Below, piece after piece: positions 19,121-57,173 of a stretch of DNA of 64,000 nt (position 1 is the stretch's first letter; the number at the start of each line of letters is the position of its first letter). The stretch spans positions 27,338 through 91,337 of IMG/VR virus record IMGVR_UViG_3300014835_000071; one strand, 5' to 3'. A program made the translations under genes and the position numbers. Origin of the DNA: a virus. The notes under the pieces are model-generated. The model worked only from the letters and a program-made list of their open reading frames with translations, was not told the origin of the DNA and ran no database searches.

Positions 19121-20314
19121 TTATTCGTAATAACAAGTGGTACCAAATGGTGCAGAAATAGTGGTTGAGCCATGAATGACAAATATGGTATCGCAATAAT
19201 CTGGATCACCCCACGCACCACATGGAAAGCCATCTGTAAATATTATTAATTTTTGTGGAATTATATCCTGTTCTTTCATATACGACCAATTAACAGTAAA
19301 ATCAGTACCACCTCCGCCAATGGGTTGGTATTGGTCAAAATCACTTATATTATATTGGTCAAAATCCTGTTCATTGTAGACAGCAGTGTCAAAGCACCAA
19401 ACTTTAATCTGGAAGGTCTGGTATTCTTCCATTATGCCTTTGATTTCACTTATGAAATCAAGCGCCTGGTCATTAGTGATAGAACCAGACATGTCAATGC
19501 TCACGCAAATGTCAATTGTATCTTGTAGTTTATTGCCTGGTAAATTTGCGGATAAATGCCAGCTTTTTCTATTTGGACGCATCCATGAATAGTCATTTGA
19601 GACAGTACTTTGGATTTGTTGTTGTAAAATAGATCGCCAATCCATAGTTGGTGAAATTAACGCTTGAATAATCCGTTGGATACTAGCGGGTGTTTCAGTA
19701 TTGCCAACCGCTGTCGCTGCCGCCATGATTGCCTCTGTTACTTCACTTCTAATTTGTCGTAATTCTTCAGCGGTGTATACCGGCTGCCCATTGGCTGTGT
19801 GCATTTCAGACGTGCCATCGGGTAGTTCCCAATCAATATGCTGATCTAACATATCACCGAGTTGATCTAACATGTCATCGTCATGCTCTTTTAAAATATC
19901 GTAGACTTCCTCGGCACTCATTCCATAGTAATTGGTATCATGTAGTAAATCAATTCCATCAATATTCCAATCTCCTATTTTATCACGAATTAATTGGCCA
20001 TTAACACAGAAATCAGCCGCGTAATTAAATATCTTGCTGATGCGACCTTCTAATCTACCCATGTGATCAAACGCATTATGCAAAATTTCATGTGCTAGTA
20101 CAAATTGAATTTGTGGCACTGATAATTTAGCAAAGAAATTTTGATTAAAGAAAATAGTGCGGCCATCAGTTGCCGCAGAATCACACCAATTGCTGCCATC
20201 CTTAATGATTAATCTAGCTGCCAAATTACCAAAGAATGGATGTTTCAATAATAAGCCAACCCTAGCTATTACTATGTTATCAATGATTGCGGTAAGTTGT
20301 TGAGAAGAGGACAT
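19121..20314 (-). CDS. HExxH metallopeptidase-like + VWA domain protein (DUF2201-type), MoxR partner
   Basis: 397 aa; AATDG and LAHEILHNAFDH (HExxH) in N-half; MIDAS elements DMSGS, GGGTDF and IFTDG in C-half. Confidence 0.9.
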   Translation of the reverse strand: MSSSQQLTAIIDNIVIARVGLLLKHPFFGNLAARLIIKDGSNWCDSAATDGRTIFFNQNFFAKLSVPQIQFVLAHEILHNAFDHMGRLEGRISKIFNYAADFCVNGQLIRDKIGDWNIDGIDLLHDTNYYGMSAEEVYDILKEHDDDMLDQLGDMLDQHIDWELPDGTSEMHTANGQPVYTAEELRQIRSEVTEAIMAAATAVGNTETPASIQRIIQALISPTMDWRSILQQQIQSTVSNDYSWMRPNRKSWHLSANLPGNKLQDTIDICVSIDMSGSITNDQALDFISEIKGIMEEYQTFQIKVWCFDTAVYNEQDFDQYNISDFDQYQPIGGGGTDFTVNWSYMKEQDIIPQKLIIFTDGFPCGAWGDPDYCDTIFVIHGSTTISAPFGTTCYYE

Positions 20315-20375
20315 AATTATTCCTATTATATTGATAACGTGGTGATGACCATGATAGCCATCACCGATTGTGTGG

Positions 20376-21458
20376 TTATTTGTCTAATGCCGCAGTTATA
20401 TATTTGCCATATTTGTTATGAAATTCATCAAAACAAGCAATTTCATCAACATCAACTGGTAATTTATAGGTAGTTAACGCAAGTTTAGTGCCCATGATTA
20501 CTAATTCTGTTTCAAAATTTGCCATCATGAATGCGAAGAAATTGTTAACTTTATCATTCCAATCAAGGTCACCATTACTAGCACTGATTTTTAATTCATA
20601 ACATAGGCCAATCGTTAATGAATACATGGCTGATATTTCATGATTGGTCATACCTTTGATTTCACCACTTAAAATATCCACTGGGTTTGGTAATGTACCA
20701 GCTAATTTATGATAAGCGCCAAATTTAATAGCAGCGCCTTCCCCGACTGCACCTGCTATTAATGACATCAAGGTTTCTTCATCTGTGTCATTACCAGTAA
20801 TTAAATCACTTACGAAACTCCAAGAGCGTGGGGTTGCGAATGCTCTAGCACTTGATTTAGGATCATAATCATATAAATCATTCTTGGACCAATTTAAGAA
20901 ACCAATTACATTTTTGTGAATATTATTTTCAGTAGCCCAGTCAAACCAATCAGTGAATGAATGGGTCATTTCTAAATGGATAAATCTATTTGATAATGGA
21001 GCTGGCATTTTATAAGTCACCCCTTTATCAGATTCTCGATTCCCAGCTGCTACGATGACTACATTATCGGGTAATTCATACGTGCCAACTTTGCGATTTA
21101 ATACTAATTGGTATGCTGCTGCTTGTACACTAGGTGCTGCTGAATTCATTTCATCTAAAAATAAAATTATTCTTTCATGTTTGGCAGCGAGATCGGCACT
21201 TGGTAATTCTTCAGGTGGTGCCCATTTCATTGTTCCGGTGATACTATCAAAGTAGGGCACTCCTTTTATGTCAGTTGGGTCCCATAATGATAATCTAATA
21301 TCAATCACTAATGAATTGGTTTTGTCACCTATCAATTTAATAAGATCTGATTTACCAATACCTGGTGGTCCCCAGAGAAAAACTGGACGTTTAATGGCAA
21401 ATGCTTTAGTTAAAGATTTAAAAGCAGCTTTGGGACCAACTGTTCTGTTCAGATTCAT
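20376..21458 (-). CDS. MoxR-type AAA+ ATPase
   Basis: 360 aa; Walker A GPPGIGKS, Walker B LFLDE, AAGN sensor, NRF arginine finger, TPRSW. Confidence 0.9.
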   Translation of the reverse strand: MNLNRTVGPKAAFKSLTKAFAIKRPVFLWGPPGIGKSDLIKLIGDKTNSLVIDIRLSLWDPTDIKGVPYFDSITGTMKWAPPEELPSADLAAKHERIILFLDEMNSAAPSVQAAAYQLVLNRKVGTYELPDNVVIVAAGNRESDKGVTYKMPAPLSNRFIHLEMTHSFTDWFDWATENNIHKNVIGFLNWSKNDLYDYDPKSSARAFATPRSWSFVSDLITGNDTDEETLMSLIAGAVGEGAAIKFGAYHKLAGTLPNPVDILSGEIKGMTNHEISAMYSLTIGLCYELKISASNGDLDWNDKVNNFFAFMMANFETELVIMGTKLALTTYKLPVDVDEIACFDEFHNKYGKYITAALDK

Positions 21459-34175: not shown

Positions 34176-34429
34176 TAAGGTTTCCTGCCAAACCAGTGAA
34201 TAAACCATTCTTCGGTACCGGGTTCGATACGCTTTTCACGTTGTTCAGTACCCCTTGTATCGGAGAAACTTGATGTAGCTGCACGATGTTCATGTAATCG
34301 CACATCTGCCCCCAATCCAGCCATATGTGCATTAATTTTCAATTCTTGGATTGGGTCATCTGGTGCTAAGTAGCAATCGTCTGGACTGTCATAAGTTAAA
34401 TCTGCCGTTGTTATTCGATATTGCTTCAT
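34175..34429 (-). CDS. Hypothetical protein
   Basis: 84 aa; coupled on both sides. Confidence 0.75.
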   Translation of the reverse strand: MKQYRITTADLTYDSPDDCYLAPDDPIQELKINAHMAGLGADVRLHEHRAATSSFSDTRGTEQREKRIEPGTEEWFIHWFGRKP

Positions 34430-35313
34430 TATACTCCGTATTTGTTTTTCTTAAATGTGGCCACTGCACTTTTAGTATTTACATCTGGCAATTCTTCTGA
34501 TTTAGTAGAGCCATGTTTAGCCGGGGTGACTCCCATCGCAATAGCGGCCTTGCGCTGAATTTCAACATCAGCATCAGTGTACCCAATTGTTACCATACGA
34601 CCACCTACCGGACCACGTTTGTCCATATTATCAGCAGGTGCACCTGCTAATGCCACTCCGTATCTATACCCAGCATATGTACTATTATTATTGTCAAGAT
34701 CTTTCCATACTTGCAGGTTTGGTATTGCTCGTTGAGTGGCAACACGCAACTTTCCTTCCCGAACCATTGTATTATGCATATCTTGCATAGCAGATTCTAA
34801 ATTGAAAGCATCAAGATTCTTCTTTGGCGTTCTTGAATTGACATCAACTGTTGAATTTTGGGCAGTTATTTTACCAACTCCAGCACATTCAGGCATATCT
34901 GATTCATTAGCACGGATTCTTGATTTAAATTTTCTTCCTGATTTTTTTAATTGGTTCCACGGGTTATTCAAGTCATGTCTAGTTCCACGACTGCCTTGTT
35001 TTCGTGCAAACATAGCCAATGATTCATCGGCGATTGGATCACTCGATGTTTCGGGAACTTTGGTAGGTAATCCTGTATGTTTAGTTTTAGCAAAATCAGT
35101 TACGTCTTGCTTATTCATTGATTTAGCCACTTTGGCAACTTGTTTACTCGCTGTTTTCTTCCCAGTTTGAGCAGCATGCACCATACCCATAAATTTCTGC
35201 TGTGCTTTTGATTTTGAAACTTCCGACAGTGGGATCATTCCATCATTTTTAAGGATATTATATAATCCTTCGAGCATAGCACTGGTGTCTAATCTAATCT
35301 TACTATCTTTCAT
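34429..35313 (-). CDS. Modular probable head-internal protein
   Basis: ATG 35313 with GAGGA RBS; 294 aa; short basic modules separated by LSE-V, ADE-S, ANE-S, VRE-G. Confidence 0.7.
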   Translation of the reverse strand: MKDSKIRLDTSAMLEGLYNILKNDGMIPLSEVSKSKAQQKFMGMVHAAQTGKKTASKQVAKVAKSMNKQDVTDFAKTKHTGLPTKVPETSSDPIADESLAMFARKQGSRGTRHDLNNPWNQLKKSGRKFKSRIRANESDMPECAGVGKITAQNSTVDVNSRTPKKNLDAFNLESAMQDMHNTMVREGKLRVATQRAIPNLQVWKDLDNNNSTYAGYRYGVALAGAPADNMDKRGPVGGRMVTIGYTDADVEIQRKAAIAMGVTPAKHGSTKSEELPDVNTKSAVATFKKNKYGV

Positions 35314-35324
35314 CGTAAAAATCC

Positions 35325-35873
35325 TCAATCATATTCTAAAAATTCTTCAATTATATCAAAGAATTTAATCACTCTTGTATTTAGTTCAATTTCAGTATCA
35401 GCCGATATGCCAGCTTCATTGGTGAACATTTCCCGGTCACCAATGCGTACCGCCTCTCGCAAATTCGACGCCGTTGCTAATCTAGGGGTTAATACATGCT
35501 GTATTGTTCTAAACTTAAAAAATCCATGTGTATTTACTATACCATTGTACATGTTCAATCGATCAGTTAACCAGTTTTCGTCAGTACAAACATAAAGATC
35601 AATTCCGTCACCTAAATCAGCATAAATACCGGCTGCTAATGAAAACAAATTCTTAGTTATTACGATATGCTGCGTTATAGATGGCATGATAGTTTGCATT
35701 GCTAGTAATTTAACTGATATAGGCAATGGGTCATGCTGACCATGTGTGTCTGGATTAGTGCCGACGTAATAATCATCAAATTGACTAGCAATTTCCCACA
35801 TTGCTTTGTGACCTTTATGTGGTGGATTGAATCTACCAAAGCAAATACCAACTGTTCGACTATCTATATTCAT
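35325..35873 (-). CDS. HxGH-family (cytidylyl/adenylyltransferase-like) nucleotidyltransferase
   Basis: Start reassigned to ATG 35873; 182 aa; FGRFNPPHKGH (HxGH) and C-terminal ATASNLR. Confidence 0.8.
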   Translation of the reverse strand: MNIDSRTVGICFGRFNPPHKGHKAMWEIASQFDDYYVGTNPDTHGQHDPLPISVKLLAMQTIMPSITQHIVITKNLFSLAAGIYADLGDGIDLYVCTDENWLTDRLNMYNGIVNTHGFFKFRTIQHVLTPRLATASNLREAVRIGDREMFTNEAGISADTEIELNTRVIKFFDIIEEFLEYD

Positions 35874-36957
35874 TGGGTAACCACCGATGTCTAGGTACAA
35901 GTTTAACATTGCCAAATTTCTTATCAATATCTGAATATTTAACCCACCCCTCTGAATTACTGACCTGAATATCAACTGGTTCATTAACTAATTGATCAAT
36001 TATACAATTTTTTAACGTCATTATGTGTCTAACAAGTTCAAACATGATCATTAATGCATCTGGATGTTGTAAAAGCCTGTTATTAATCTTCAATTGTTGT
36101 GGTTTACTTACTTTACTACATAATAGCCAATCATTAAAAGTAGCGCCCAATTCAGATAATTTGTGGTTTTTTGCAGTTGTATTTGTATATCGGTATAGAT
36201 AGTCTTTAAATAAACTGACCCCACTCATCGGTGCCAATACCATATCTATTACAGCTGTATGTTCAGTTATGAAATTATCAATAAAATTAACTGTTAATTC
36301 AGGCATTACCAATGCTTGATTGGCATAGAATGGACTCAATACAATTAATTCAGTTGAGTTAAATTCATCAAATGTATCTTTTGGCAATTGTGCATCATCC
36401 GACAGCCCAAACTTATCAAAATAAGCATGTCCAACAACTAACACGGATGATTTACCTATGCGTTGTCCCAATGGAGAATCGTTCTTGATATGATAACCAG
36501 ATTTTCTATTTGGATATAGGTTATAAACATCATTTTCATCTACCTCTGGCTGTTCTATATACAATGCGTCAGCATATACGAATCCAACAAAATTCGCAGG
36601 TGTTGCTTGTTCAAATATCGAAAATAAATTAGCAAAAGTGGTAGCAAACGCAGTTCGTTCCATTATTTCAGCCGTTGTTCTGGGTGAACCTGATTTATTC
36701 ACTATAAAATCATACAATTCATCACTAGTGGTTGATTTAATACCACGTGACCACCCATTATGCCCAGTTAAGATAAATGGCCCATCTATTGTTTCTCTAC
36801 CCCAATATATTTGTAATCCACCATCCCATTTCATACGAACTGAATTGGTATCATGAAATATCTCAGTTAAATGACACATTGCCTCACGGGCACCTGATGA
36901 ACCATAAAAAAATACCAAATCTTCAACATGATTGAATGCTCTGCCTAGTTTTTTCAT
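35860..36957 (-). CDS. KxDG ligase/capping-enzyme-fold nucleotidyltransferase-like protein
   Basis: 365 aa; motif I MKWDG, motif III-like VYADAL, motif IV EGWV, motif V VKLV in the expected order. Confidence 0.65.
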   Translation of the reverse strand: MKKLGRAFNHVEDLVFFYGSSGAREAMCHLTEIFHDTNSVRMKWDGGLQIYWGRETIDGPFILTGHNGWSRGIKSTTSDELYDFIVNKSGSPRTTAEIMERTAFATTFANLFSIFEQATPANFVGFVYADALYIEQPEVDENDVYNLYPNRKSGYHIKNDSPLGQRIGKSSVLVVGHAYFDKFGLSDDAQLPKDTFDEFNSTELIVLSPFYANQALVMPELTVNFIDNFITEHTAVIDMVLAPMSGVSLFKDYLYRYTNTTAKNHKLSELGATFNDWLLCSKVSKPQQLKINNRLLQHPDALMIMFELVRHIMTLKNCIIDQLVNEPVDIQVSNSEGWVKYSDIDKKFGNVKLVPRHRWLPNEYR

Positions 36958-37601
36958 ATATTATACGTGTGTTTGATTGATTGTAATTTAAAAGGTTGGT
37001 TAATTAATGCCAATAACATTTTAGCAGGTGACCGTAAGTCATCAGCCACTGCAGCTGCGTCTATGATGACTTTGGCTATGTGGTCTTTGTTACGTGTAAT
37101 AAGTTCTTTAGTGATTCTATTCATTAATCCACGATATGGGCTTATTATTAAGTCTGGGGATGTCAATTTAGCTAAGTCCGCCCATATACTAACGATGAGT
37201 TTACCAGTTATGTCAGGGGTATCATATTCATGATCATGTAATAGTTGAATATCAAGTGGGTATTCAACTGTCATTAAATCAACTTGAATAAATTCGCCAT
37301 TTAATGAAAGACCTACATGAACACTAACCCCAGATCTACGCGAAATTAATCCATTGGCTGTTAGATAGTCAGACAACAATTGTCTACTGACTCGAATATC
37401 CGGTGGATACGATGGGAAAATAGCTAACAGTTCGGTGGTATCAATTAATATGTCAATATCCATACTAATTTCTTTTTTACCAGCACTACCGAATGGAAAA
37501 ATAGATAGTTCATGCGGTAGTATAGTTTTTAATTGCTGGATTGCTAGTTGATAATCACATTTTTTTATTGGACGGGCGTTTGGAATTATTTTTCCGCTCA
37601 T
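36954..37601 (-). CDS. Pol-beta superfamily nucleotidyltransferase
   Basis: 215 aa from ATG 37601; FGSAGKKEISMDIDILI (GS-x8-DxD) plus third acid in IQVDL. Confidence 0.75.
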   Translation of the reverse strand: MSGKIIPNARPIKKCDYQLAIQQLKTILPHELSIFPFGSAGKKEISMDIDILIDTTELLAIFPSYPPDIRVSRQLLSDYLTANGLISRRSGVSVHVGLSLNGEFIQVDLMTVEYPLDIQLLHDHEYDTPDITGKLIVSIWADLAKLTSPDLIISPYRGLMNRITKELITRNKDHIAKVIIDAAAVADDLRSPAKMLLALINQPFKLQSIKHTYNI

Positions 37602-37971
37602 TATGTTTACCATCGGTTATGTGTTGACAAACCTCTTCGTGTAATTTTTCACATATCTCATTGCATAGTGCGTCATCTAATGAGTCATCTAATATACGAA
37701 TTGGATATTTTTGTACATACATATGGTAGCATTTATGAACCGCATTGTCAAACACACTAGGCTTAGTTGATTTATTGGCATTGATTCGATCTATGCATAT
37801 GGATATAGTAGGATGTAAATGGCGGCGATATGCCTCGTCATCATTATTCATAAAGAATATTAAATCACCAACCAAATCAAAGTCTAATTCTTGACCACCT
37901 TTGTCACCAATTTGTTTAATATGATCTCGTTCGTTAAAATTGTTGCCTTCTAATAGTTCTATAATACGCAT
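37555..37971 (-). CDS. Hypothetical protein, probable head-internal protein (MRIIELLEG N-terminus)
   Basis: 138 aa; first gene after the late-promoter motif at 37995; IIE-L, LLE-G sites. Confidence 0.7.
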   Translation of the reverse strand: MRIIELLEGNNFNERDHIKQIGDKGGQELDFDLVGDLIFFMNNDDEAYRRHLHPTISICIDRINANKSTKPSVFDNAVHKCYHMYVQKYPIRILDDSLDDALCNEICEKLHEEVCQHITDGKHNERKNNSKRPSNKKM

Positions 37972-37994: not shown

Positions 37995-38002
37995 TATTTA
38001 GC
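37995..38002 (-). promoter_or_regulatory. Putative late promoter (GCTAAATA) heading the 37971-33972 gene run
   Basis: 23 nt upstream of ATG 37971, directly after the clpA terminator. Confidence 0.55.
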
Positions 38003-38009
38003 TTAATTA

Positions 38010-38047
38010 AAAAACCCCAGGTACATAGATATATACCTGGGGTTTTT
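38010..38047 (-). terminator. Intrinsic terminator downstream of clpA
   Basis: 14-bp arms aaaaaccccaggta / tacctggggttttt, 10-nt loop, T-run in both orientations. Confidence 0.85.
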
Positions 38048-38068: not shown

Positions 38069-40330
38069 TTAATCATTGATCAATGTGTCAGTGACTGATA
38101 TACTTCCAACCATTCGTTTTGATTTTGCTATTAAATTAATGGCATCATCCTCAATTGTTATATTCAATACGCCACCATCTTTCAAATCACCAAATAGCAT
38201 CATTTTGGCCATAGTTCGTTTTATCTCGGTATCGATCACTCGTTGTAGCGGTCTAGCTCCCATTTTAGTATCGAATCCTTTTTCAATTAGCCAATTAATC
38301 GTACTAGTATCTATCTTAATACGTACTGATTTTTCTTTAACTTGATTACGTAATTCATTGATAAATTTATCAACTACTTTACGCATGGTATCTTTATCCA
38401 ATTTATTAAATGTGATAATACCATCTAATCTGTTGCGAAATTCTGGTGTGAAGAATTTTTTAAGATCAACGTCAGTGTGTTCTTTTTCTTGATTGCCAAA
38501 TCCTATGTTATTTTTATCAGCTGATTGAGCACCAGCGTTGGTAGTTAATATCACTACCAAATTTCGACAATCCACCTGTTTACCAGTTGAACCAGTAACA
38601 AATCCATTATCCATTATTTGCAGTAATATGGTAGTTACGTCTGGATGTGATTTTTCAACTTCATCCAGTAATAAAATAGCATTTGGATTTTCTTGAATGC
38701 CATTAATCAATAATCCGGTACTTTCTCCAAATCCAACATACCCAGGTGGGCTACCGATTAATTTACTAATGCTATGTTTCTCTTGGTATTCACTCATATC
38801 AAATCGAAGTAATTTAACACCCAAATGCCTAGCCAACGATTGCGCTAATAATGTCTTCCCACAGCCAGTTGGACCCATAAAGATAAAACTGCCAATTGGT
38901 TTATTCTCAGTTTTTAATCCAGCTCTTGCTACTAATATTTTATCAACAACTTCAGTTAACGCAGCATCTTGACCGTAAACATCAGTCGCAAGTTTCGTTT
39001 GTAGCATAGCTAAGTTATGACTTTCGGTTTCCATGATTTGCTCAACTGGTAAATTTACCAATTTAGCTAATTCAACTTGGATTTCGTTTTCGGATACTAC
39101 CCTGCTATCATCTAATGTTATATTAAAACGAGAACAAGCTAGATCAATCAAATCAATTGCCTTATCTGGTAATTTTTTATCTGACTGATATTTAACCGAT
39201 AATTTAATAGCTGTATGTAAAGCACAATCTTTAATTCTAACTTTATGATGACTTTCGTAATATTTCTTAATTCCCTTGAGTATTTTAAAGGTCACGCCAG
39301 CACTAGGTTCATCAATGATTATGCGTTGAAATCTTCGCATCAATGCTCGATCTTTTTCAAAATGCTTACGATATTCCTCCCATGTAGTGGCAGCAATTAC
39401 CTTAATGGTACCCTTACTTAACGCAGGTTTCATCATATTAGCAAGATCATTAGCTGAATTAGAACCTGATCCGGCACCACTAATCATATGCGCCTCATCA
39501 ATAAATAGTACAGTATTTCCTTTTTTCCCTAATGCTGCTATGACTTGTTTAAACCGTTCTTCAAAATCACCACGATATTTACTACCCGCAAGCATAGCGG
39601 AAATATCTAAGTTAAATACCGTATAGTCCAACAAGAATGCCGGTACTTCTTTTTTAACAATGTTATACGCCAATCCCTCGGCAATTGCCGATTTACCAAC
39701 GCCTGGATCACCCACCATTAAAATATTATTTTTGTTACGTCTACCCAATGCCAGTGCTATATTTTCAAGTTCATCAACTCGTCCAATAACTGGGTCAATT
39801 TTATCTTGCTCGACTAGTGCAGTTAAGTTAGTGGTATAAGCTGCTAATGCCTTACTAAGACGCATATCATCTACTACCGGAGTTTTGGTATCAGTTGATT
39901 GTGCCTGTGCTTGTAAATAATCAGTGAATTTATCCTTGTCAATACCAGCTTGTGCAATATAATAGAATGCCCAGCTTCGTTTTTCATTCAGCATCATTAA
40001 AAATGCGTCAGTAATTTCAACTCGTTGGCGATTATTAAAAATTACCTGAGTGAATGATTTATTTAATAAACGTTCTACCGCAACCGTTTTCTTAGGTACG
40101 ACTGCTTCCGACAATGTTATATCATCAAAATTATGCTGAACATGTAAAGCTATCATTTTCTTAAGACTATTGGCATTGGTACCAAATTGGGTTAAGCATA
40201 GTACAAAGTTGGTATTCTGTAACATTGCCAATAGCAAATGTTCAATGGTGATATATTCATGTCGCCCAGTTTTAGCGGCTTCAGCTGCTCTACTCAGTAC
40301 TTCTTCAAAATCAGTGCTTGGTTCTACCAT
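38069..40330 (-). CDS. clpA: ATP-dependent Clp protease ATPase subunit, ClpA type
   Basis: 753 aa; Clp N-domain (HEYITIEHLLL), NBD1 GDPGVGKS/FIDEAH, NBD2 GPTGCGKT/LLDEVEK, RFDMSEY, GSPPGYVG, IGF loop, GARPL; no ClpB middle domain. Confidence 0.95.
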   Translation of the reverse strand: MVEPSTDFEEVLSRAAEAAKTGRHEYITIEHLLLAMLQNTNFVLCLTQFGTNANSLKKMIALHVQHNFDDITLSEAVVPKKTVAVERLLNKSFTQVIFNNRQRVEITDAFLMMLNEKRSWAFYYIAQAGIDKDKFTDYLQAQAQSTDTKTPVVDDMRLSKALAAYTTNLTALVEQDKIDPVIGRVDELENIALALGRRNKNNILMVGDPGVGKSAIAEGLAYNIVKKEVPAFLLDYTVFNLDISAMLAGSKYRGDFEERFKQVIAALGKKGNTVLFIDEAHMISGAGSGSNSANDLANMMKPALSKGTIKVIAATTWEEYRKHFEKDRALMRRFQRIIIDEPSAGVTFKILKGIKKYYESHHKVRIKDCALHTAIKLSVKYQSDKKLPDKAIDLIDLACSRFNITLDDSRVVSENEIQVELAKLVNLPVEQIMETESHNLAMLQTKLATDVYGQDAALTEVVDKILVARAGLKTENKPIGSFIFMGPTGCGKTLLAQSLARHLGVKLLRFDMSEYQEKHSISKLIGSPPGYVGFGESTGLLINGIQENPNAILLLDEVEKSHPDVTTILLQIMDNGFVTGSTGKQVDCRNLVVILTTNAGAQSADKNNIGFGNQEKEHTDVDLKKFFTPEFRNRLDGIITFNKLDKDTMRKVVDKFINELRNQVKEKSVRIKIDTSTINWLIEKGFDTKMGARPLQRVIDTEIKRTMAKMMLFGDLKDGGVLNITIEDDAINLIAKSKRMVGSISVTDTLIND

Positions 40331-40346
40331 TAATATACCTATATAG

Positions 40347-41195
40347 TTACGTTATATTGTTAATTTCATTATTTAATTGAATTAATCTATTAATTAAATC
40401 AATGTTTCTAATCGCAGGTGTCTTTATTTTAGTAACTGCCACAAAATTACCACGATGTCCAGAATGCAAATTGGTGAATCCACCACCTGGTCGAATGAAT
40501 TCAGTACCAGTTTCCGCACCAGCTGTTATTTCCATCATTACTTCAACCCCAGTTACTAATAATACTGATTTTCGGCAACCAATCATAGCATCAATCGGTG
40601 AAATTTCCAAGTCAATATAAATATCATTACCCATTCGTCGATAGATATCGGATGCCGATACCCCGATTGTGACATTAAGATTTCCACGAGCCACCCCAGG
40701 TATTGAATCATCACCGAGACCTTGGTATTGGATAGTAGCGCCATGTTCAACGCCAGCTGGTATATCAATTACTATACTCTGATTTTTACCACTTGGCAAG
40801 TTATATTTTGCTTCTAATTGTTTACCATTAACTGAATCAATAAATGAGACTTGACAATTCATATTCAAGTCTCGATTTCGTTGTGCCTGTTGGTGATGTT
40901 GTTGTCCAAATATATGTGAAAAATGAGCACCGGCAAATTGCTGACCAAAAATGTCATGAAAATTGTGATGAGTGGTATGCGTATGTTGTCCAAAACCACC
41001 TGTGTGCCCATTATCATACGCAGCGCGTTTATCAGGATTACCCAATGTTTCATACGCAGATGCAATATCTTTAAATTTTGCTTGATCACCGCCTTTGTCA
41101 GGGTGATGCTGATTAGCTAATCTTCTATATGCTTGTTTAATGTCGGATGCTGTGGCATTCTTTTCAATGCCCAATGTTTGATAATGTGCTGTCAT
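40347..41195 (-). CDS. dnaJ: Class B J-domain co-chaperone (DnaJ/CbpA-like)
   Basis: 282 aa; J domain with intact HPD, G/F/H-rich linker, C-terminal domain, no CxxCxGxG zinc finger. Confidence 0.92.
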   Translation of the reverse strand: MTAHYQTLGIEKNATASDIKQAYRRLANQHHPDKGGDQAKFKDIASAYETLGNPDKRAAYDNGHTGGFGQHTHTTHHNFHDIFGQQFAGAHFSHIFGQQHHQQAQRNRDLNMNCQVSFIDSVNGKQLEAKYNLPSGKNQSIVIDIPAGVEHGATIQYQGLGDDSIPGVARGNLNVTIGVSASDIYRRMGNDIYIDLEISPIDAMIGCRKSVLLVTGVEVMMEITAGAETGTEFIRPGGGFTNLHSGHRGNFVAVTKIKTPAIRNIDLINRLIQLNNEINNIT

Positions 41196-45008: not shown

Positions 45009-45398
45009 TTAATACATTGGATTACTAAAATCAAATGTCTGTGTAGTCGAATTGTTCGATTGACCTAGATATGCATCACTGGGACATTCATCACTGACCA
45101 GCATGATAGATTTAGTTTCCACTCGACGAACCTCAATTGTATCACCAGTGTCTGGCTCAATTTTAATCCCTCTCGTCCATCTACCATGTTCAACTAATAT
45201 CCAATCACCAATTTTGACACTGGTTTGTGCTGTGCCAATTGCGTAAACCTTGGCCCATCTTGGTTTGATACCTTCACTTTTACCATCATCACTTTTAATG
45301 ACAATTCCACTAGCAGTAGTCTGCTCGGCAAAGTTCATATCAGTAACCAATACACTATCATAAATTGGTACTAATTTGTTACATTTAATTGCACTCAT
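45009..45398 (-). CDS. groES: GroES/Cpn10 co-chaperonin
   Basis: 129 aa; P..D.VLV, mobile loop TTASGIVI, V.A+G....VK+GD.+L; C-terminal extension. Confidence 0.85.
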   Translation of the reverse strand: MSAIKCNKLVPIYDSVLVTDMNFAEQTTASGIVIKSDDGKSEGIKPRWAKVYAIGTAQTSVKIGDWILVEHGRWTRGIKIEPDTGDTIEVRRVETKSIMLVSDECPSDAYLGQSNNSTTQTFDFSNPMY

Positions 45399-45748: not shown

Positions 45749-46252
45749 TTATCTTAAAAATTCTCGCCAATCTAATGAATATTTGATGCTATCTATTCGA
45801 TGTACACCAATTAAATATAAGACAAAACTGGCTACACTAGATCCTCTACCAACACCCCATACTATATTATTCTCCAAACATGTATCAACAAAATATTTAA
45901 GCCATTTTAATAATGTACCTAATTTACGTTGTTCAAATTCGGAAAATTCATCAAGCACTCTAACTCGTTGTTTATCAGTTGTGCATTTATCCAAACAATA
46001 AGCAAGCATGTCTAATTCATAATAGGACACTGGCATAAACCATTGTGCTTGGTATCGTTGGTCAAAAGAATCTATATCCTCACATGTAAAAACTGGACTG
46101 TTAAACTCCATTTCAGTAATTTCTTGGAATTGAATTATAGTTGGACTTTGTGCCACCATTAATTCACTAATTTCTGATATATTCCCTTCATATAAGAATT
46201 TAAATATATCAGAATCGTCAAATATTGGATTTTTAAATTTATCTAAATGCAT
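45749..46252 (-). CDS. Stand-alone fragment homologous to part of DNA polymerase III alpha (DnaE)
   Basis: 167 aa; VWGVGRGSSVASFVLYLIGVHRIDSIKYSLDWREFLR* aligns with DnaE [34 protein letters not shown]. Confidence 0.75.
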   Translation of the reverse strand: MHLDKFKNPIFDDSDIFKFLYEGNISEISELMVAQSPTIIQFQEITEMEFNSPVFTCEDIDSFDQRYQAQWFMPVSYYELDMLAYCLDKCTTDKQRVRVLDEFSEFEQRKLGTLLKWLKYFVDTCLENNIVWGVGRGSSVASFVLYLIGVHRIDSIKYSLDWREFLR

Positions 46253-50345: not shown

Positions 50346-50353
50346 TATTTAGT
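50346..50353 (-). promoter_or_regulatory. Putative late promoter (ACTAAATA)
   Basis: 19 nt upstream of ATG 50326, followed by AAGGA RBS. Confidence 0.55.
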
Positions 50354-51050: not shown

Positions 51051-51345
51051 TTAAATATCTCCCAGAAAGTGTGCAGTTATGCCAATATCGCTGACAATCT
51101 GGCATGATAGGAATATCTAACCGGTCGTTTGGCCCACCACGCTTGTCATAACACGCACCAGCTTCGCCAATAGGCAAACCGGTCCATATTACAAAATCAC
51201 AACCGGTGGCACCAACCCAACATTCACCACACCCATTACACTGCCCATTAATTTCCCAATGTCGCCCATCGTCACTGATGTATTCAACATGGTTATCACT
51301 GATACTAACAATTTTGATAGATGGCATCGATGTTGCTATTTTCAT
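51040..51345 (-). CDS. Small Cys-rich protein with CxxCxxC (putative Fe-S or Zn binding)
   Basis: 101 aa; CNGCGEC plus four more Cys; ATGA overlap with the long fibre gene. Confidence 0.65.
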   Translation of the reverse strand: MKIATSMPSIKIVSISDNHVEYISDDGRHWEINGQCNGCGECWVGATGCDFVIWTGLPIGEAGACYDKRGGPNDRLDIPIMPDCQRYWHNCTLSGRYLNGN

Positions 51346-54300
51346 AATAATGGGGTTACCTTAATATCCAATGTAACACGCGTTACAGTAACCGCGCTAT
51401 CCACCGTAAATTCCAATATATCACCAGCAAGTAGCGCAGTACTCCCCCATCCAGTTAATGTAATATTTTGATTTTTTAATACACTACTAAAGGTTGGTTT
51501 GTTGGTTCCAGCTATACTGACAGTAGTTGGATAATTCGCGTATGTACCTCGTTTAATGTCAACCACTATGCTTCCACTAACATCGCCTAGCATAGTCCAA
51601 CTATTAATAGTACAAGCAAAATCAATTACTAAATGTCCCTTAGAACCAGTGGTTATCACTGAACCACCACCATCTATGACATAATTAATGCTTCTAACGG
51701 TAGCAATTGGTGTTAATGTAATGGTTTGTGTGATGACATCACTAGTGATAACTATGCCGGTATTACCTTCTGCGAACGTAATGCTATCTTCTGGAGTTAT
51801 TGCGTCAATATCAGTCTCATACACACCACTTTTATGTTTGACTCGATGTTTTTTATTACCCTTGGCATAATCAGTAATCGTGATAGTATTTCCAACGATA
51901 GCCATTTGCATACGACCACCTGGCGAAAATATTATATCGTCAGTTGGACTAGTTGCGGTAAATGTACCATCACCCTGAACTGATACCGTTTTTATAACTG
52001 GTTGGGTACCACTTGTTGCAGTATTTGTAATTGTTATACCGCCTGTACCAGAACTTACACTAATACCAGTACCTGCTGTTACACTAGTCACGCCTGTATT
52101 AGTGAACGTTACTGCTCCAGTTGAAGAACTCACACCAATACCAGTACCAGCAACCGCAGATGTCACTGCTGATAAAGTGCCACCTAATGTTATATTTCCA
52201 GATGCAGTGACGGTACCGCTCAGAGTCAGCCCACTAACCGTACCTGTGCCCACTACACTAGTGACTGTACCAACGCCTTTATTATTGAAGTTTGACCAGT
52301 CAGTAGCACTTAGTAGTCCCCTATTCAATGCCGACGATGTTGGTATATTCAATGTAATAACTGGGGAAGTACTACCATTCGTAACTGTACTAGATATATC
52401 ACTGCCAGTTGTTCCCAACGTTAACGCAGCAACGCTCGTGACAGTACCAGTATTGGTAGTAAATCCACTTGGATTGGATGCAGCATAAGCACCAACTGTA
52501 CTAAAATCAATAGTCCGCGCAGTTCCGCCATTATACGAAGTACCAGCACTCGCTCCACCACTAGTATTGAATGTCAAGTTGGCAACAACTGAGCCAGCTG
52601 AACCGGATGTATTAGCAGCATTATTAGGTATATCAGACGAACTTAATACTCGAAATATTGGTATACCAGCGGTTCCAACAGGTGCTGCTAATATAGTATT
52701 GGCACTCTGTGAAGTAAAATTACTAGCAGATACCGCTAATGTACCACCCAACGTTAGATTCCCCAAAGTAGTGATTGAGCCAGATAATGTCAATCCACTG
52801 ACAGTACCAGTACCACCTACGCTAGTTACGGTACCATTTCCCTTGTTATTAAACGCAGACCAATCGGTTGAACTTAATACACCTCGATTCAATGCTGAAG
52901 CAGTTGGTATATTCAATGTTATAACAGGTGTTGATGTGCCACTTGCAACTGTCGATGTTATATCAGTGCCAGTGGTACCGATAGTTAGTGCCGAAATGTT
53001 AGTAACGGTACCCTGTGGATTAGCCGCTGCGGTCACGCCAGTAATGCGTCCGTATGTATCAACTGTAATCACTGGGATTAAAGTTGATGAACCAGTGGTA
53101 CCTATTGTAACAATTCCACTTGATAAATTCACAGTTGGTATAGCACTTGTTCCGGCGATAGTTAGTGTAGTGGAAGACACACTAGTCACAGTGCCATTTC
53201 CCTTGTTATTAAACGCAGACCAATCGGTTGAACTTAACGCACCTCTATTCAAGGCCGAAGCAGTTGGGATATTCAATGTTATTACAGGTGTAGATGTACT
53301 ATTCGTTATAGTTGAAGTGACATCACTGCCAGTAATACCAATTGTTAATGCCGAAACATTAGTGACTGTACCAACATTATTAGTAAATCCACTAGGATTA
53401 GTAATACTATATGGAGTATACCCGAGTCCATCGGTAACCTGCAAGCTTGTCACTGTATTCCCACTAATTGAAGTGACTGTACCGGCATTGCCATCTATAT
53501 TGACACCGGTTAAATCCTGTATCGCACTAACTCGGTTAAATGAAACATTTGTTGTACCAATATAAGCACTTGAAAAAATGACTGGATGATTGGTTATTTT
53601 ACTATAATCCAAACCAGCAATCCAAGATGGGTTATTATATGAACCATTTGTATACACGCCATTAGTGACAGTTGCTGAATTACCATTAATTGAACCAGCT
53701 ATAAGTGAACTAAATGTCTTAATACCAGTGATAGTTTGGTCGCTCATGGTATAAACTCCATTAGTAACAGTACCGGCATTGCCATCTATACTGATACCGG
53801 TTAAATCCTGTATCGCACTAGCTCGGTTAAATGAAACATTTGTTGTACCAATATAAGCACTTGAAAAAATGACTGGATGATTGGTTATTTTACTATAATC
53901 CAAACCAGCAATCCAAGATGGGTTATTATATGAACCATTTGTATACACGCCATTAGTGACAGTTGCTGAATTACCATTAATTGAACCAGCTATAAGTGAA
54001 CTAAATGTCTTAATACCAGTGATAGTTTGGTCGCTCATGGTATAAACTCCATTAGTAACAGTACCGGCATTGCCATCTATACTGATACCGGTTAAATCCT
54101 GTATCGCACTAGCTCGGTTAAATGAAACATTTGTTGTACCAATATAAGCACTTGAAAAAATGACTGGATGATTGGTTATTTTACTATAATCCAAACCAGT
54201 AATCCAAGATGGGTTACTGTATGAACCATTTGTATACACGCCATTAGTGACAGTTGCGGCATTCCCAGATACATTACCAATAAAACTTGAAGCAGTTACG

Positions 54301-57173
54301 GTACCATTAACTGACAGTCCAGTGTTATCAATACTGGCTCGTATTTCTGCGAGAGTGGTCCCACCAGTGAAGAATTGAATAACTTTAGCAGTGGTATCGG
54401 TTCCGATTAATAAATTACCGCCGTTGATGTATAGGTAACCATCATTAGGTGCAAGAATCGGCCAACTTGATTCGGCATATGTACTAGATACAATGCCCAT
54501 ATCAATATAATGACTGGTGTCATTGCCGATATTATTAGTCGCAACATAATCTACCGATGCCAAGAATCCATCACTATGATTTTTAATAACATTCTGCACA
54601 TATGTATCTGCGCTAGCATCAGTCTGCATTGCAGCATTGGGAAAGTCATAATTATTATATGAATTGCCAACGTGAACACTGTATTGAGCAATAATAGTAT
54701 CTGCGTTTAATTGGCGCGTCACTAAACCAGCGCCGTCAGTATCCCAACGGTCATGTAATAAGTTATATAAAAAAGTACGTGCATAACTGTCCGACAATGG
54801 ACCTAATACAATACCACCGCCATCTATATCATCAGCTATAGTTGAATCTGCTGCTAAAAATAACAATTTACCAGCTATAGTTGGTGCAGATGATAAATTA
54901 AAATCAGCAACTGACAATGTACCGGTAATATTCAAATCATGAAAGGTCAAGTTGCTGGTAGTTGCTATCGCTTGTGGCAATGTCAGTGTAATATTTTGAC
55001 CAACGTTATTTACTGAAATCTGTCCAGTACCAGTTGCCGCAATCACACTTAGTATACCAGTTGCCGCAATAGTAACTGCCCCACCAGTGTTATTAATCGT
55101 AATACCAGTACTGGCAGCAACCGAATTGATTATCGATGGCACACCAGACAAATTACTCCACAATAACGTACTTCCACTAGTTAAATAATTAAGATCATTA
55201 GTCCAATATGATATATTTGATGGCTTATCTGCTAAATCTGTCCAACTACCACTAAATGCATCAGTTAACAGTTGATAAGCTGTCAAATCAGGCAACTCAG
55301 TTAAATTGGTGTAACTGTATGTACCCAACCATGCCGTTTGTTGACGTGAAGCGTCACCAAAAGTAATGCCGCTTGATATAGGTAATGAAATATTATTACT
55401 GTCAATGGTCAGTGAAGCCACTCGTGATAACGTGCCGATTGCATAGGTATATATAGTTGACTTAGAACCAAACGCACTACTGGTATAATTTTCAGTGGCA
55501 GAAAATTCAATACTACTAGGTAAAGTGGCCCCAGTTGGGTAATAATTGATGTTTGCAAAACCCAACCCAGCATACCTAGCTAAAATATCACCGGAGATAG
55601 TAGGCGTGGGTGATGCTGCTGTACCACGTGCACTTCGTCCTACGAATATTGGCAGATTACCAGTACCAAACGTGTCCATCGTGATTCTACTAGCATCACC
55701 ATCATATCCAGTTATATGCAGCATACCACCCGCATTAATAACTGGTTGGTAACTGCCATCGGCAGTGCCGATTAGATTTATCGCACCAGAATCACCAGCT
55801 GGGATACGCGGTGGATGTAATGAAACTCGTCCAGTTCGGTCAACGCCAAATGCATGGTTACCAACTGGAGTATTAACTACTATCGGTCGATTGAATATCA
55901 CATCAGCGGTGGCATCGATCGTGCCAATGATAAGATCACGTGCTGGATCGCCTATATATAATTGATTACCCCTAAAGGTAAACTCACCCACTGCCAACCC
56001 AGCGCCGCCAGTGATGACTAAGTTACCATCAATTGCGGTAATTCGTAAATCAATACCTAATATCTCATCTTGAACATATATCGAACCTGCGCCCAACCAT
56101 AATCGTTTAAATCGTTTAGTCGGGGTTCCTAAATCATATAAACTAGTTGATATAGGAATTATTGAGGAATGAGTAATGACATTCCCACCTGAGGTAGCAT
56201 TTAGACTAATATCAGTATTGGCAACTGTACTTATTACCAAACTCGCATTCACCACTGGCCGAACTATAAACACAGTGGTGGCATGCAGTGGTAAAATAAG
56301 TGGATCTGGAATGGTTTTATTTGTTATGATGATATTCGAATATATACCACTACCAATGAATAATACTTCACTTAATAATGGTATATTAATACCTGATATC
56401 ACATCTTCCGTGTGAATAGTCGATGCAGTGGTACTAACTTGGTAAACTGCCCAGCCGCCATTACTGCCACTTATGCCATTTAATAAACCATAATCGCCAA
56501 TTGATAAATTATCAAGATCATCAGTGCTATAATCAACTAATGTATCCAATATTAAATTATCTACAATAATTTCAATACTGGAAGTTTGCTGAACTAAACT
56601 ACCGACTGGTAATTTTAAGCTCGGTACATACACATAGCCGGTGCCATTTGGAATTATATTAATATCACCATCTACATCATTGCCGGAAATGGTCTGGTCT
56701 GATATTGACAAATTACCCAATACATCAACACTAATGGTGCCAGTATTATCAATTACAATAGTGGTATTATCAATTTTAACACCACCAAGTATAACATTAG
56801 TGGCAATAGGTAATGAATATAACTGATTAGTAATAACCCAAGCAGCACTATCATACACGTATAACGAATGATCAGTTAAATTGTACCATAGTGAACCAAG
56901 CATGGGATTACTTGGTGGGTTAGTGGCTATAACAGTTTGCATAGCCACAGTTAAGTCTATTACTTTTGTAATATTATCATACGCAACTTGAATACCCTGG
57001 TGATACCCATCAACTAGCATACCAGCGGCATCATCGCGTATAGATTCCACAAAATTCTCAGTAAAGGTATATATTTCAGTAAAGTTTTGATTTATCTTAT
57101 CAAAAGCGACTCTAAGTGGATCGCCACTCTTATCATTTACTGAAATTCCAATATTAATTAATTTCCTAGTCAT
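51342..57173 (-). CDS. Long tail fibre (1943 aa) with gp9/gp10-like N-terminus and internal repeats
   Basis: INIG...NDKSGDPLRVAFDKINQNF N-terminus; Thr/Ser/Gly-rich shaft with tandem repeats; globular C-terminal tip. Confidence 0.85.
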   Translation of the reverse strand: MTRKLINIGISVNDKSGDPLRVAFDKINQNFTEIYTFTENFVESIRDDAAGMLVDGYHQGIQVAYDNITKVIDLTVAMQTVIATNPPSNPMLGSLWYNLTDHSLYVYDSAAWVITNQLYSLPIATNVILGGVKIDNTTIVIDNTGTISVDVLGNLSISDQTISGNDVDGDINIIPNGTGYVYVPSLKLPVGSLVQQTSSIEIIVDNLILDTLVDYSTDDLDNLSIGDYGLLNGISGSNGGWAVYQVSTTASTIHTEDVISGINIPLLSEVLFIGSGIYSNIIITNKTIPDPLILPLHATTVFIVRPVVNASLVISTVANTDISLNATSGGNVITHSSIIPISTSLYDLGTPTKRFKRLWLGAGSIYVQDEILGIDLRITAIDGNLVITGGAGLAVGEFTFRGNQLYIGDPARDLIIGTIDATADVIFNRPIVVNTPVGNHAFGVDRTGRVSLHPPRIPAGDSGAINLIGTADGSYQPVINAGGMLHITGYDGDASRITMDTFGTGNLPIFVGRSARGTAASPTPTISGDILARYAGLGFANINYYPTGATLPSSIEFSATENYTSSAFGSKSTIYTYAIGTLSRVASLTIDSNNISLPISSGITFGDASRQQTAWLGTYSYTNLTELPDLTAYQLLTDAFSGSWTDLADKPSNISYWTNDLNYLTSGSTLLWSNLSGVPSIINSVAASTGITINNTGGAVTIAATGILSVIAATGTGQISVNNVGQNITLTLPQAIATTSNLTFHDLNITGTLSVADFNLSSAPTIAGKLLFLAADSTIADDIDGGGIVLGPLSDSYARTFLYNLLHDRWDTDGAGLVTRQLNADTIIAQYSVHVGNSYNNYDFPNAAMQTDASADTYVQNVIKNHSDGFLASVDYVATNNIGNDTSHYIDMGIVSSTYAESSWPILAPNDGYLYINGGNLLIGTDTTAKVIQFFTGGTTLAEIRASIDNTGLSVNGTVTASSFIGNVSGNAATVTNGVYTNGSYSNPSWITGLDYSKITNHPVIFSSAYIGTTNVSFNRASAIQDLTGISIDGNAGTVTNGVYTMSDQTITGIKTFSSLIAGSINGNSATVTNGVYTNGSYNNPSWIAGLDYSKITNHPVIFSSAYIGTTNVSFNRASAIQDLTGISIDGNAGTVTNGVYTMSDQTITGIKTFSSLIAGSINGNSATVTNGVYTNGSYNNPSWIAGLDYSKITNHPVIFSSAYIGTTNVSFNRVSAIQDLTGVNIDGNAGTVTSISGNTVTSLQVTDGLGYTPYSITNPSGFTNNVGTVTNVSALTIGITGSDVTSTITNSTSTPVITLNIPTASALNRGALSSTDWSAFNNKGNGTVTSVSSTTLTIAGTSAIPTVNLSSGIVTIGTTGSSTLIPVITVDTYGRITGVTAAANPQGTVTNISALTIGTTGTDITSTVASGTSTPVITLNIPTASALNRGVLSSTDWSAFNNKGNGTVTSVGGTGTVSGLTLSGSITTLGNLTLGGTLAVSASNFTSQSANTILAAPVGTAGIPIFRVLSSSDIPNNAANTSGSAGSVVANLTFNTSGGASAGTSYNGGTARTIDFSTVGAYAASNPSGFTTNTGTVTSVAALTLGTTGSDISSTVTNGSTSPVITLNIPTSSALNRGLLSATDWSNFNNKGVGTVTSVVGTGTVSGLTLSGTVTASGNITLGGTLSAVTSAVAGTGIGVSSSTGAVTFTNTGVTSVTAGTGISVSSGTGGITITNTATSGTQPVIKTVSVQGDGTFTATSPTDDIIFSPGGRMQMAIVGNTITITDYAKGNKKHRVKHKSGVYETDIDAITPEDSITFAEGNTGIVITSDVITQTITLTPIATVRSINYVIDGGGSVITTGSKGHLVIDFACTINSWTMLGDVSGSIVVDIKRGTYANYPTTVSIAGTNKPTFSSVLKNQNITLTGWGSTALLAGDILEFTVDSAVTVTRVTLDIKVTPLL
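52255..53390 (-). repeat. Three diverged ~65-aa repeats in the long fibre
   Basis: GTVT.(V/I).ALT.G.TG.D..ST....TS.PVITLNIPT.SALNRG.LS.TDWS.FNNKG.GTVTSV occurs three times; boundaries approximate. Confidence 0.8.
53479..54257 (-). repeat. ~2.7 tandem copies of a near-identical 291-bp (97-aa) unit
   Basis: gtaccggcattgccatctata starts at 53479, 53770 and 54061; about three substitutions seen between adjacent copies. Confidence 0.95.

Follow-up and report, generated by a model that had tools for sequence, protein, structure and literature searches.

Three overlapping nucleotidyltransferase genes on the minus strand

The DNA analysed in this work is a stretch of 64,000 nucleotides (positions 27,338 to 91,337) of the IMG/VR virus record IMGVR_UViG_3300014835_000071, and the whole of this stretch is referred to as the window. 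The window is part of a 108.5-kb record with a CheckV completeness of 29%, and the record is a fragment of a jumbo phage. The subject of this work is a trio of overlapping genes on the minus strand of the window. Gene 1 (36954..37613) encodes a protein resembling family X DNA polymerases (PolX-like), gene 2 (35860..36957) encodes a protein of the Pfam family DUF6267 (PF19782), and gene 3 (35325..35873) encodes a transferase with the motifs GRFNPPHKGH and ATASNLR (HxGH).

All three open reading frames (ORFs) are intact and translationally coupled. The junction between the PolX-like and DUF6267 genes is an ATGA overlap, and the DUF6267 and HxGH genes share 14 nt with GGTGG upstream. The probable true start of the PolX-like gene is the ATG at 37601, which is likely because its homologues start with MSGN/K. 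A longer HxGH ORF from 35984 was rejected: its 37-residue leader is unlikely, and the homologues begin with MNIDS. The first-pass annotation of this DNA had described three overlapping minus-strand genes with three nucleotidyltransferase motifs of different folds, and both descriptions were borne out. The ORFs are intact and the motifs are invariant in the family alignments, so they are not due to chance. The three folds were recovered by structure prediction and fold search for genes 1 and 2, and by profile matches for gene 3.

The PolX-like protein

The gene 1 protein has no family match in Pfam, PHROG or NCBIfam, a tblastn search with it gave no match, and its relatives beside DUF6267 are annotated as hypothetical everywhere. 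The alignment of 21 diverse homologues, down to 20% identity, exhibits invariant G42, S43, S50, D52, D54, Q110, D112, G137, and G162, among which D52, D54, and D112 are predicted to be catalytic. The family profile matches the terminal uridylyltransferase (TUTase) Tailor over the GS...SxDxD loop (E 0.012).

The AlphaFold (AF2) model of the protein has a pLDDT of 94.9 and a pTM of 0.87. All of the best 50 Foldseek matches of this model in the PDB are Pol lambda, Pol mu or Pol beta; the alignments cover about 195 of the 219 residues, and the E values start at 4e-6. The VIA-align wide search, which is independent of Foldseek, also returned family X polymerases as all of its top eight matches. The Z scores for family X polymerases range from 9.8 to 10.9 (10.9 and 10.7 for Pol beta palm-thumb, 10.2 for TthPolX and TdT, 9.9 for Pol lambda). 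Pol X of African swine fever virus (ASFV) aligns with a Z score of 10.5 over 158 of 176 residues and a root-mean-square deviation of 3.1. The palm-only relatives (TUTases, CD-NTases, OAS, and poly(A) polymerases) align over about 100 residues with lower Z scores. The neighbours of the model in BFVD, AFDB, and Atlas are uncharacterised phage proteins, followed by PolX proteins of nucleocytoplasmic large DNA viruses, bacteria, and eukaryotes.

According to its model, the gene 1 protein is a minimal PolX-like enzyme with palm and thumb, without fingers or 8-kDa domain, and in the size class of ASFV Pol X. The earlier assignment to a generic Pol-beta nucleotidyltransferase holds for the superfamily and can be narrowed to a PolX-like palm and thumb. 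Gap filling would be as likely an activity as template-free tailing because the predicted protein is a palm-and-thumb look-alike of a small PolX, comparable with ASFV Pol X. The identity of gene 1 as RlaP was rejected, as no PF10127 match was found at E up to 1 in any of the 21 members. The ESM Atlas clusters include further fusions of the PolX-like fold, with a PD-(D/E)xK nuclease in archaeal proteins and with NTP_transf_2.

The DUF6267 protein

PF19782 is the sole Pfam match of the gene 2 protein. The family comprises 1086 clusters at 90% identity and 332 clusters at 50% identity, it is present in 471 GenBank phage records that are mostly T4-like cyanophages, and the literature search on DUF6267 found no paper. 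Alignments of 48 and 58 diverse sequences exhibit invariant H10, K43, D45, G46, G53, K316, E336, G337, and K352. E12, D13, R54, D130, N150, Y155, H177, and R356 are nearly invariant. The order of the motifs is collinear with that of ligases (motif I, KWDG with K43; motif III; motif IV, E336-G337; motif V, K352), and the invariant K-x-D-G, G-D, E-G, and K are placed on the expected strands.

The AF2 model of the DUF6267 protein has a pLDDT of 95.0 and a pTM of 0.91. In the VIA-align wide search, ligases make up nearly all of the top ten, and their alignments span 158-185 residues. The highest Z scores belong to RNA ligases (NgrRnl 6.7, Trl1 6.2, T4 Rnl2 6.2, REL1 5.9, T4 Rnl1 5.3), followed by the Sulfolobus, T4, human IV and III, Chlorella virus, T7, and ASFV ligases and the LigA adenylation domain (Z 4.2). 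Each of these alignments runs from before K43 to past K352 and skips a helical bundle of about 100 residues (220-322) that is inserted before motif IV. The three best Foldseek matches are DNA ligase IV, yet they are weak (E 0.16 or worse). When the Foldseek candidates were re-scored, seven DNA ligases had Z scores of 4.6-5.3 compared with 3.8 or less for the unrelated rows. With DUF6267 itself excluded, 63 of the 100 Atlas feature matches are PF09414 RNA_ligase clusters. Single-sequence searches against the PDB yielded no useful match, and the DUF6267 family profile found no ligase among the PDB sequences.

The model has no C-terminal oligonucleotide-binding (OB) domain and ends directly past motif V. 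As modelled, DUF6267 is a ligase-type adenylyltransferase domain that is nearest to RNA ligases at modest Z scores. Since these scores are modest, the assignment is based on the consistency of the structural matches together with the collinear invariant motifs. K43 in the KWDG motif is the predicted AMP-accepting lysine. A 65-member viral ESM Atlas cluster carries DUF6267 fused to a Cu/Zn superoxide dismutase domain.

The HxGH protein

G13, R14, P17, G21, H22, R131, and R139 of the gene 3 protein are invariant among nine sequences. The protein matches the phage 'cytidyltransferase' PHROGs phrog_3041 (5e-9) and phrog_395, and it falls narrowly under the cut-offs of TIGR00125 (26.5 bits, cut-off 27.7) and PF01467 (19.9 bits, cut-off 21). 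The solved structures that match the family profile are NMNATs and PPATs, including MJ0541 (1.3e-5), NadM (8e-4), and NadR (1.4e-3). The NMNAT equivalog models score 12-20 bits against cut-offs of 127-403, and the similarity covers the N-terminal 55 or so residues only. Judged by its motifs and profile matches, gene 3 is a putative HIGH/HxGH nucleotidyltransferase that is loosely NMNAT-like. It shares the motifs GRFxPxH/TxGH and SxxxR with the archaeal or NadM-type NMNATs and the phage 'cytidyltransferase' PHROGs, whereas its likeness to the NMNATs stops after the first 55 or so residues.

Linkage and fusion of the three genes

The linkage of the genes was assessed in 98 loci around DUF6267 genes, which were grouped into 31 clusters at 80% identity. 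A PolX-like gene, an HxGH gene or both are found beside DUF6267 or within the fetched flank in 29 of the 31 clusters, and in 25 clusters the partner is directly adjacent or fused. This is the outcome of the synteny check that the first-pass annotation had proposed. PolX-like without HxGH is exhibited by 17 clusters (14 directly 5' and usually overlapping, 2 within the flank, 1 fused), both partners are adjacent in 6, and HxGH is the only partner in another 6. The two partnerless clusters are both cut by contig ends. In total, the PolX-like gene is present in 23 of the 31 clusters (20 directly upstream, 2 in the flank, 1 fused). A search for related loci with one distant single query found none.

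Fusions were counted among 60 DUF6267 representatives of at least 450 amino acids, and 45 of these are fused to one or both partners. The domain orders are polX-lig (14), lig-HxGH (13), polX-lig-HxGH (9), lig-polX (5), HxGH-polX-lig (3), and polX-polX-lig (1), where lig denotes DUF6267. Triple fusions account for 12 of the 60 proteins, and HxGH is fused to DUF6267 in 25 of the 60. One metagenomic protein, P0176 (1144 amino acids), has four domains in the order HxGH, HAD phosphatase-like (DUF2608/Hydrolase), PolX-like, and DUF6267. Apart from this one HAD domain and one DUF5824, nothing was found when the extra regions of the fusion proteins were compared with Pfam. The HAD domain of P0176 recalls the 3'-phosphatase of polynucleotide kinase-phosphatases.

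A related arrangement is found in the cultured Agrobacterium jumbo phage Atu_ph07 (MF403008, 51340-53137), where the PolX-like protein AUZ94877 (E 1.6e-14) is encoded by a gene that overlaps the gene of AUZ94878 by 11 nt. AUZ94878 (324 amino acids) has a weak, full-length match to PF09414 RNA_ligase, and both proteins are annotated as hypothetical. The hhalign comparison of DUF6267 with two Atu_ph07 neighbours, including the PF09414-like protein, was not significant. By these matches, the PolX-like family in Atu_ph07 is paired with a different, putative ligase.

Because the adjacency is conserved and the fusions recur in varied orders, it is strongly supported, as far as genomics can show, that the trio constitutes one system or pathway. 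The earlier suggestion that the three genes serve one pathway is upheld on the same grounds.

Replication context and the ligases of cyanophages

The module adjoins replication genes in three lineages, namely the gp41 primase-helicase gene in cyanophages and in Atu_ph07, and the genes of family B DNA polymerase and clamp loader in the phage of the window. The conserved block in the cyanophages MED4-213, Melnitz-3, ACG-2014e, S-CAM9, and S-RIM12 consists of gp41 primase-helicase, MazG, hypothetical proteins, DUF6267, and a 'cytidyltransferase', and the T4-like cyanophages among the 471 GenBank records likewise have the 'cytidyltransferase' after DUF6267. These five Kyanoviridae genomes are complete, and all of them are without a match to a PF01068 or PF01653 ligase and without a PolX-like gene. 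Judging from these sequence searches, DUF6267 may be the only ligase of these five cyanophages. Close relatives of the window phage have, on the same contig as the full trio, a gene for a canonical gp30-like ATP-dependent DNA ligase (PF01068), and DUF6267 was therefore rejected as the sole ligase of the window phage. The absence of a ligase from the window's own contig is uninformative at 29% completeness.

Flanking genes and signals

The trio is preceded by a gene of 138 amino acids (37555..37971, minus strand) that belongs to no known family and is the first gene of the operon. The gene is a lineage-specific companion of the module: in the ClpB-carrying jumbo-phage lineage, 27 loci have a homologue directly 5' of the module, always as a separate gene. 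A TAAATA box (37995..38000, minus strand) is located 29 nt 5' of its ATG. An intrinsic terminator (38009..38042, minus strand) follows the ClpA/B-like gene and consists of the hairpin CCCCAGGTA / TACCTGGGG and a T6 tract (TTTTTT). It was read directly from the sequence; with a loop of 10 nt, it escaped the consensus terminator scan. Both signals noted in the first-pass annotation do exist, but they lie 5' of this fourth gene and not directly 5' of the trio. TAAATA is found 25-29 nt before the start codons of five minus-strand genes (at window positions 50351, 43893, 38000, 33974, and 22229), one of which encodes a virion structural protein. TAAATA may be a real late-type promoter element of this phage because the hexamer recurs at this distance before four further minus-strand genes, including the virion gene.

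The trio is followed by a gene with a DUF3008 match (34429..35313, minus strand) that probably starts at ATG 35313 behind a GAGGA Shine-Dalgarno sequence and is probably on the same transcript as the trio. Only 16 related loci have it behind the trio, always as a separate gene, and it is not counted in the core module. The 138-amino-acid gene and the DUF3008 protein were both rejected as universal partners of the module, since they are confined to the ClpB-carrying jumbo-phage lineage and are never fused.

The recognisable genes of the record include those of family B DNA polymerase, clamp loader, 5'-3' exonuclease, tail-fibre proteins, endolysin, and ClpA/B-like, DnaJ-like, and Cpn10-like chaperones. 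The genes around the trio had been described as probable head-internal genes, and this description found no support: the recognisable neighbours are the ClpA/B-like and DnaJ-like chaperones, the family B DNA polymerase, and the clamp loader. The chaperone set (window 38069-41195 and 45009-45398) consists of a ClpA/B-like double AAA+ protein of 753 amino acids, a DnaJ-like protein of 282, and a Cpn10-like protein of 129, and the ClpB-DnaJ pair is also located 5' of the module in related contigs. A 167-amino-acid ORF with an early stop (window 45749-46252) resembles the catalytic region of DNA polymerase III alpha (PF07733, E 4e-9) over the N-terminal part of that region. Window 51342-63979 contains two giant ORFs side by side, with 1943 and 2268 amino acids, and the first has no Pfam match. 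A gene for an AAA+ MoxR-like ATPase, followed by a DUF2201 metallopeptidase/VWA-like gene, is located at window 19121-21458, and genes of these two kinds are commonly paired. The megablast search for near-identical DNA in GenBank phages found none.

Comparison with known systems

The first-pass annotation knew of no characterised system with this trio. This is true of the three families concerned, which are uncharacterised, and of HxGH as a third partner, whereas the pairing of a polymerase or nucleotidyltransferase with a ligase is a known theme, so that the novelty holds only for the former. The closest likeness is with ASFV Pol X (O174L) and ASFV DNA ligase, and with the PolX-ligase fusion of Phaeocystis globosa virus (PMC5537341), where, in a large DNA virus, a minimal palm-and-thumb PolX of about 175-220 amino acids is the partner of a polynucleotide ligase or is joined to it in one protein. 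In the module described here, the virus is a bacteriophage, the putative ligase is the OB-less DUF6267 nearest to RNA ligases instead of a DNA ligase or LigA-type ligase, a HIGH-family protein is the third partner, no AP (apurinic/apyrimidinic) endonuclease is seen, and there is no Pfam PolX sequence match.

The pairs of RlaP (PF10127) and RNA ligase in bacteria and jumbo phages (PMC7824862, PMC12776372) are similar in that a Pol-beta-superfamily nucleotidyltransferase is genomically coupled to a ligase, and they share the proposed logic in which nucleotides are restored before sealing. RlaP adds one or two nucleoside monophosphates to an RNA 3'-OH (PMC7824862, PMC12776372). The two arrangements differ in the ligase family and in the modelled thumb of gene 1, which is of the PolX type, whereas RlaP has a helical C-terminal domain. 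Bacterial LigD, with its polymerase, phosphoesterase, and ligase domains in variable order, is similar in that nucleotide-adding and sealing domains are fused in several orders, rarely with a phosphatase as well (the HAD domain in P0176). However, the LigD polymerase has the archaeo-eukaryotic primase fold and not the PolX fold, and the LigD ligase has an OB domain. To our knowledge, no HxGH partner has been described for RlaP.

The nick-sealing RNA ligases T4 Rnl2, Naegleria NgrRnl, and trypanosome REL1 are the best structural matches to DUF6267 (Z 5.9-6.7, 168-185 residues) and share motifs I, III, IV, and V with it. REL ligases also work with a Pol-beta-type TUTase. DUF6267 differs from these ligases in having no detectable sequence similarity to them, and in its helical bundle before motif IV and its invariant N-terminal H-x-E-D.

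Proposed function and alternative explanations

We consider it probable (about 0.6) that the products of the operon repair broken nucleic acid as a fill-in-and-seal module. In this module, the PolX-like enzyme would extend the 3'-OH of a gap or damaged end by the missing nucleotide or nucleotides. The DUF6267 ligase would then self-adenylylate, activate the 5'-phosphate, and seal the nick. The HxGH protein would be an accessory adenylyltransferase acting on a phosphate acceptor, and this is the least certain step. It may make an AMP-donor cofactor (NAD-like) for the ligase, or it may add or remove AMP at a phosphate end of the nucleic acid. The substrate would be DNA strand breaks or gaps, possibly by way of a ribonucleotide patch as in LigD. 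We lean slightly towards DNA over RNA or tRNA as the substrate of the module, with the balance close to even. DNA is favoured by the PolX fold, by the replication genes beside the module in three lineages, and by the presence of DUF6267 in so many cyanophages, five of which have complete genomes without a PF01068 or PF01653 ligase. RNA is favoured by the RNA-ligase structures nearest to DUF6267, by the precedent of RlaP with its RNA ligase, and by the canonical DNA ligase that relatives of the window phage already have. A LigD-like route, in which ribonucleotide fill-in is followed by a ligase that prefers an RNA 3'-OH, would reconcile both.

Several observations weigh against the fill-in-and-seal module. 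The window protein does not match the Pfam PolX palm and thumb models (PF14792 and PF14791), and 2 of the 21 homologues reach only E 0.088 for PF14792. DUF6267 has no sequence match to the named ligase families PF01068, PF01653, and PF09414, and its ligase Z scores of 5-6.7 are in the range where the tool warns of chance. The structural neighbours diverge: gene 1 is closest to DNA polymerases, gene 2 to RNA ligases. In the window, no kinase or phosphatase for end healing, no AP endonuclease, and no Ku was seen close to the trio, and no search directed at Ku was made. The HxGH family is also found alone in phages without the other two genes, such as coliphage 121Q. Because the family occurs without these partners, its product is probably useful by itself. 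We know of no ligation system or pathway that uses a HIGH-family transferase.

The first-pass annotation had offered three pathways, among which nucleic-acid end repair fits best, and NAD supply and a signalling nucleotide have little support (no Nampt, NMNAT similarity at the N-terminus only, CD-NTases matching the palm alone). An explanation that differs from the proposed module in substrate only is the repair of RNA (tRNA) against host ribotoxins, where the Pol-beta-type enzyme would restore one or two nucleotides missing from the 3' end of a cleaved RNA and the Rnl-like ligase would reseal it, in the manner of RlaP and its RNA ligase. It is possible, though we regard it as unlikely. The solved structures nearest to DUF6267 are the RNA ligases listed above (NgrRnl to T4 Rnl1), most of the Atlas feature matches (63/100) are PF09414 clusters, the PolX-like gene of Atu_ph07 overlaps a PF09414-like gene, and the pairing of RlaP with RNA ligase is established in jumbo phages (PMC7824862, PMC12776372). 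A second, RNA-directed ligase would also make sense in relatives that already own a canonical DNA ligase. However, the palm and thumb of gene 1 resemble family X DNA polymerases and not RlaP, in line with the lack of PF10127 in all 21 members, and several lineages have the module among genes for DNA replication. Neither the window nor its neighbours yielded a Pnk-type kinase/phosphatase, RtcB or tRNA genes. The replication genes bear also on an improbable alternative, in which DUF6267 would be a divergent replicative ligase for Okazaki fragments, the PolX-like enzyme would fill primer gaps, and HxGH would be an unrelated neighbour. The lack of PF01068 and PF01653 in 5 of 5 complete Kyanoviridae, the position of DUF6267 just 3' of the gp41 gene in those genomes, and its presence in 471 phage records are consistent with such a role. 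It is opposed by the gp30-like ligase on the contigs of trio-carrying close relatives, by the lack of an OB domain, and by the fusion of HxGH to DUF6267 in 25 of 60 long representatives, which argues that HxGH is not an accidental neighbour.

The remaining explanations start from the HxGH protein or leave nucleic-acid repair altogether. HxGH could act as an NMN adenylyltransferase, replenishing NAD+ in the face of NAD-depleting defences and supplying a DUF6267 ligase that depends on NAD+. We regard this as quite improbable, even though the HxGH profile has its best solved relatives among the NMNATs (MJ0541, NadM, and NadR), there is a known viral fusion of PolX to an NAD+-dependent ligase (PMC5537341), and the presence of the family alone in phages is expected of a cofactor-making enzyme. 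The restriction of the NMNAT alignment to the N-terminal 55 or so residues and the equivalog scores far below their cut-offs argue against it, as does the position of DUF6267 nearer to ATP-dependent ligases than to the LigA adenylation domain (Z 4.2), with no Ia domain. No Nampt/NadV was seen, and most DUF6267 loci lack an HxGH gene in the vicinity. A signalling-nucleotide system (CD-NTase/OAS-like) or a glycan or small-molecule modification (cytidylyltransferase and LicD-like phosphotransferase) would involve no nucleic-acid repair. HxGH enzymes classically activate small phosphorylated molecules, and the Pol-beta palm is common to CD-NTases, OAS, and LicD, which are found at lower ranks in the gene 1 match lists. 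Those matches cover about 100 residues with Z scores of 6-7, against 158-176 residues and Z scores of 10-11 for PolX, and the partner that is always present at the centre of the module has a ligase fold and an invariant lysine in motif I. The loci examined show no effector, receptor or glycosyltransferase tied to the module, and an explanation of this kind is very improbable.

Significance

The findings in this work may be extended to a three-enzyme phage machine shared by hundreds of cultured marine cyanophages and by uncultured jumbo phages, in which the HIGH transferase would perform a new chemistry tied to ligation (AMP-donor cofactor or AMP on and off phosphate ends) and DUF6267 would be the missing ligase of T4-like cyanophages. 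This extended claim is doubtful at present and is put forward tentatively. The link between a ligase and a HIGH-family transferase looks obligatory, and we know of no precedent for it. For viral family X polymerases, ASFV is the only example cited in a 2022 review of phage DNA polymerases (PMC8775771), and PolX-type enzymes would, if the assignment is true, extend to bacteriophages. The module is a concrete candidate for DNA joining in T4-like cyanophages without gp30-type or LigA-type ligases (5 of 5 tested). With the pair or trio recognised as a polymerase-ligase module, a large part of viral dark matter gains a function that can be tested.

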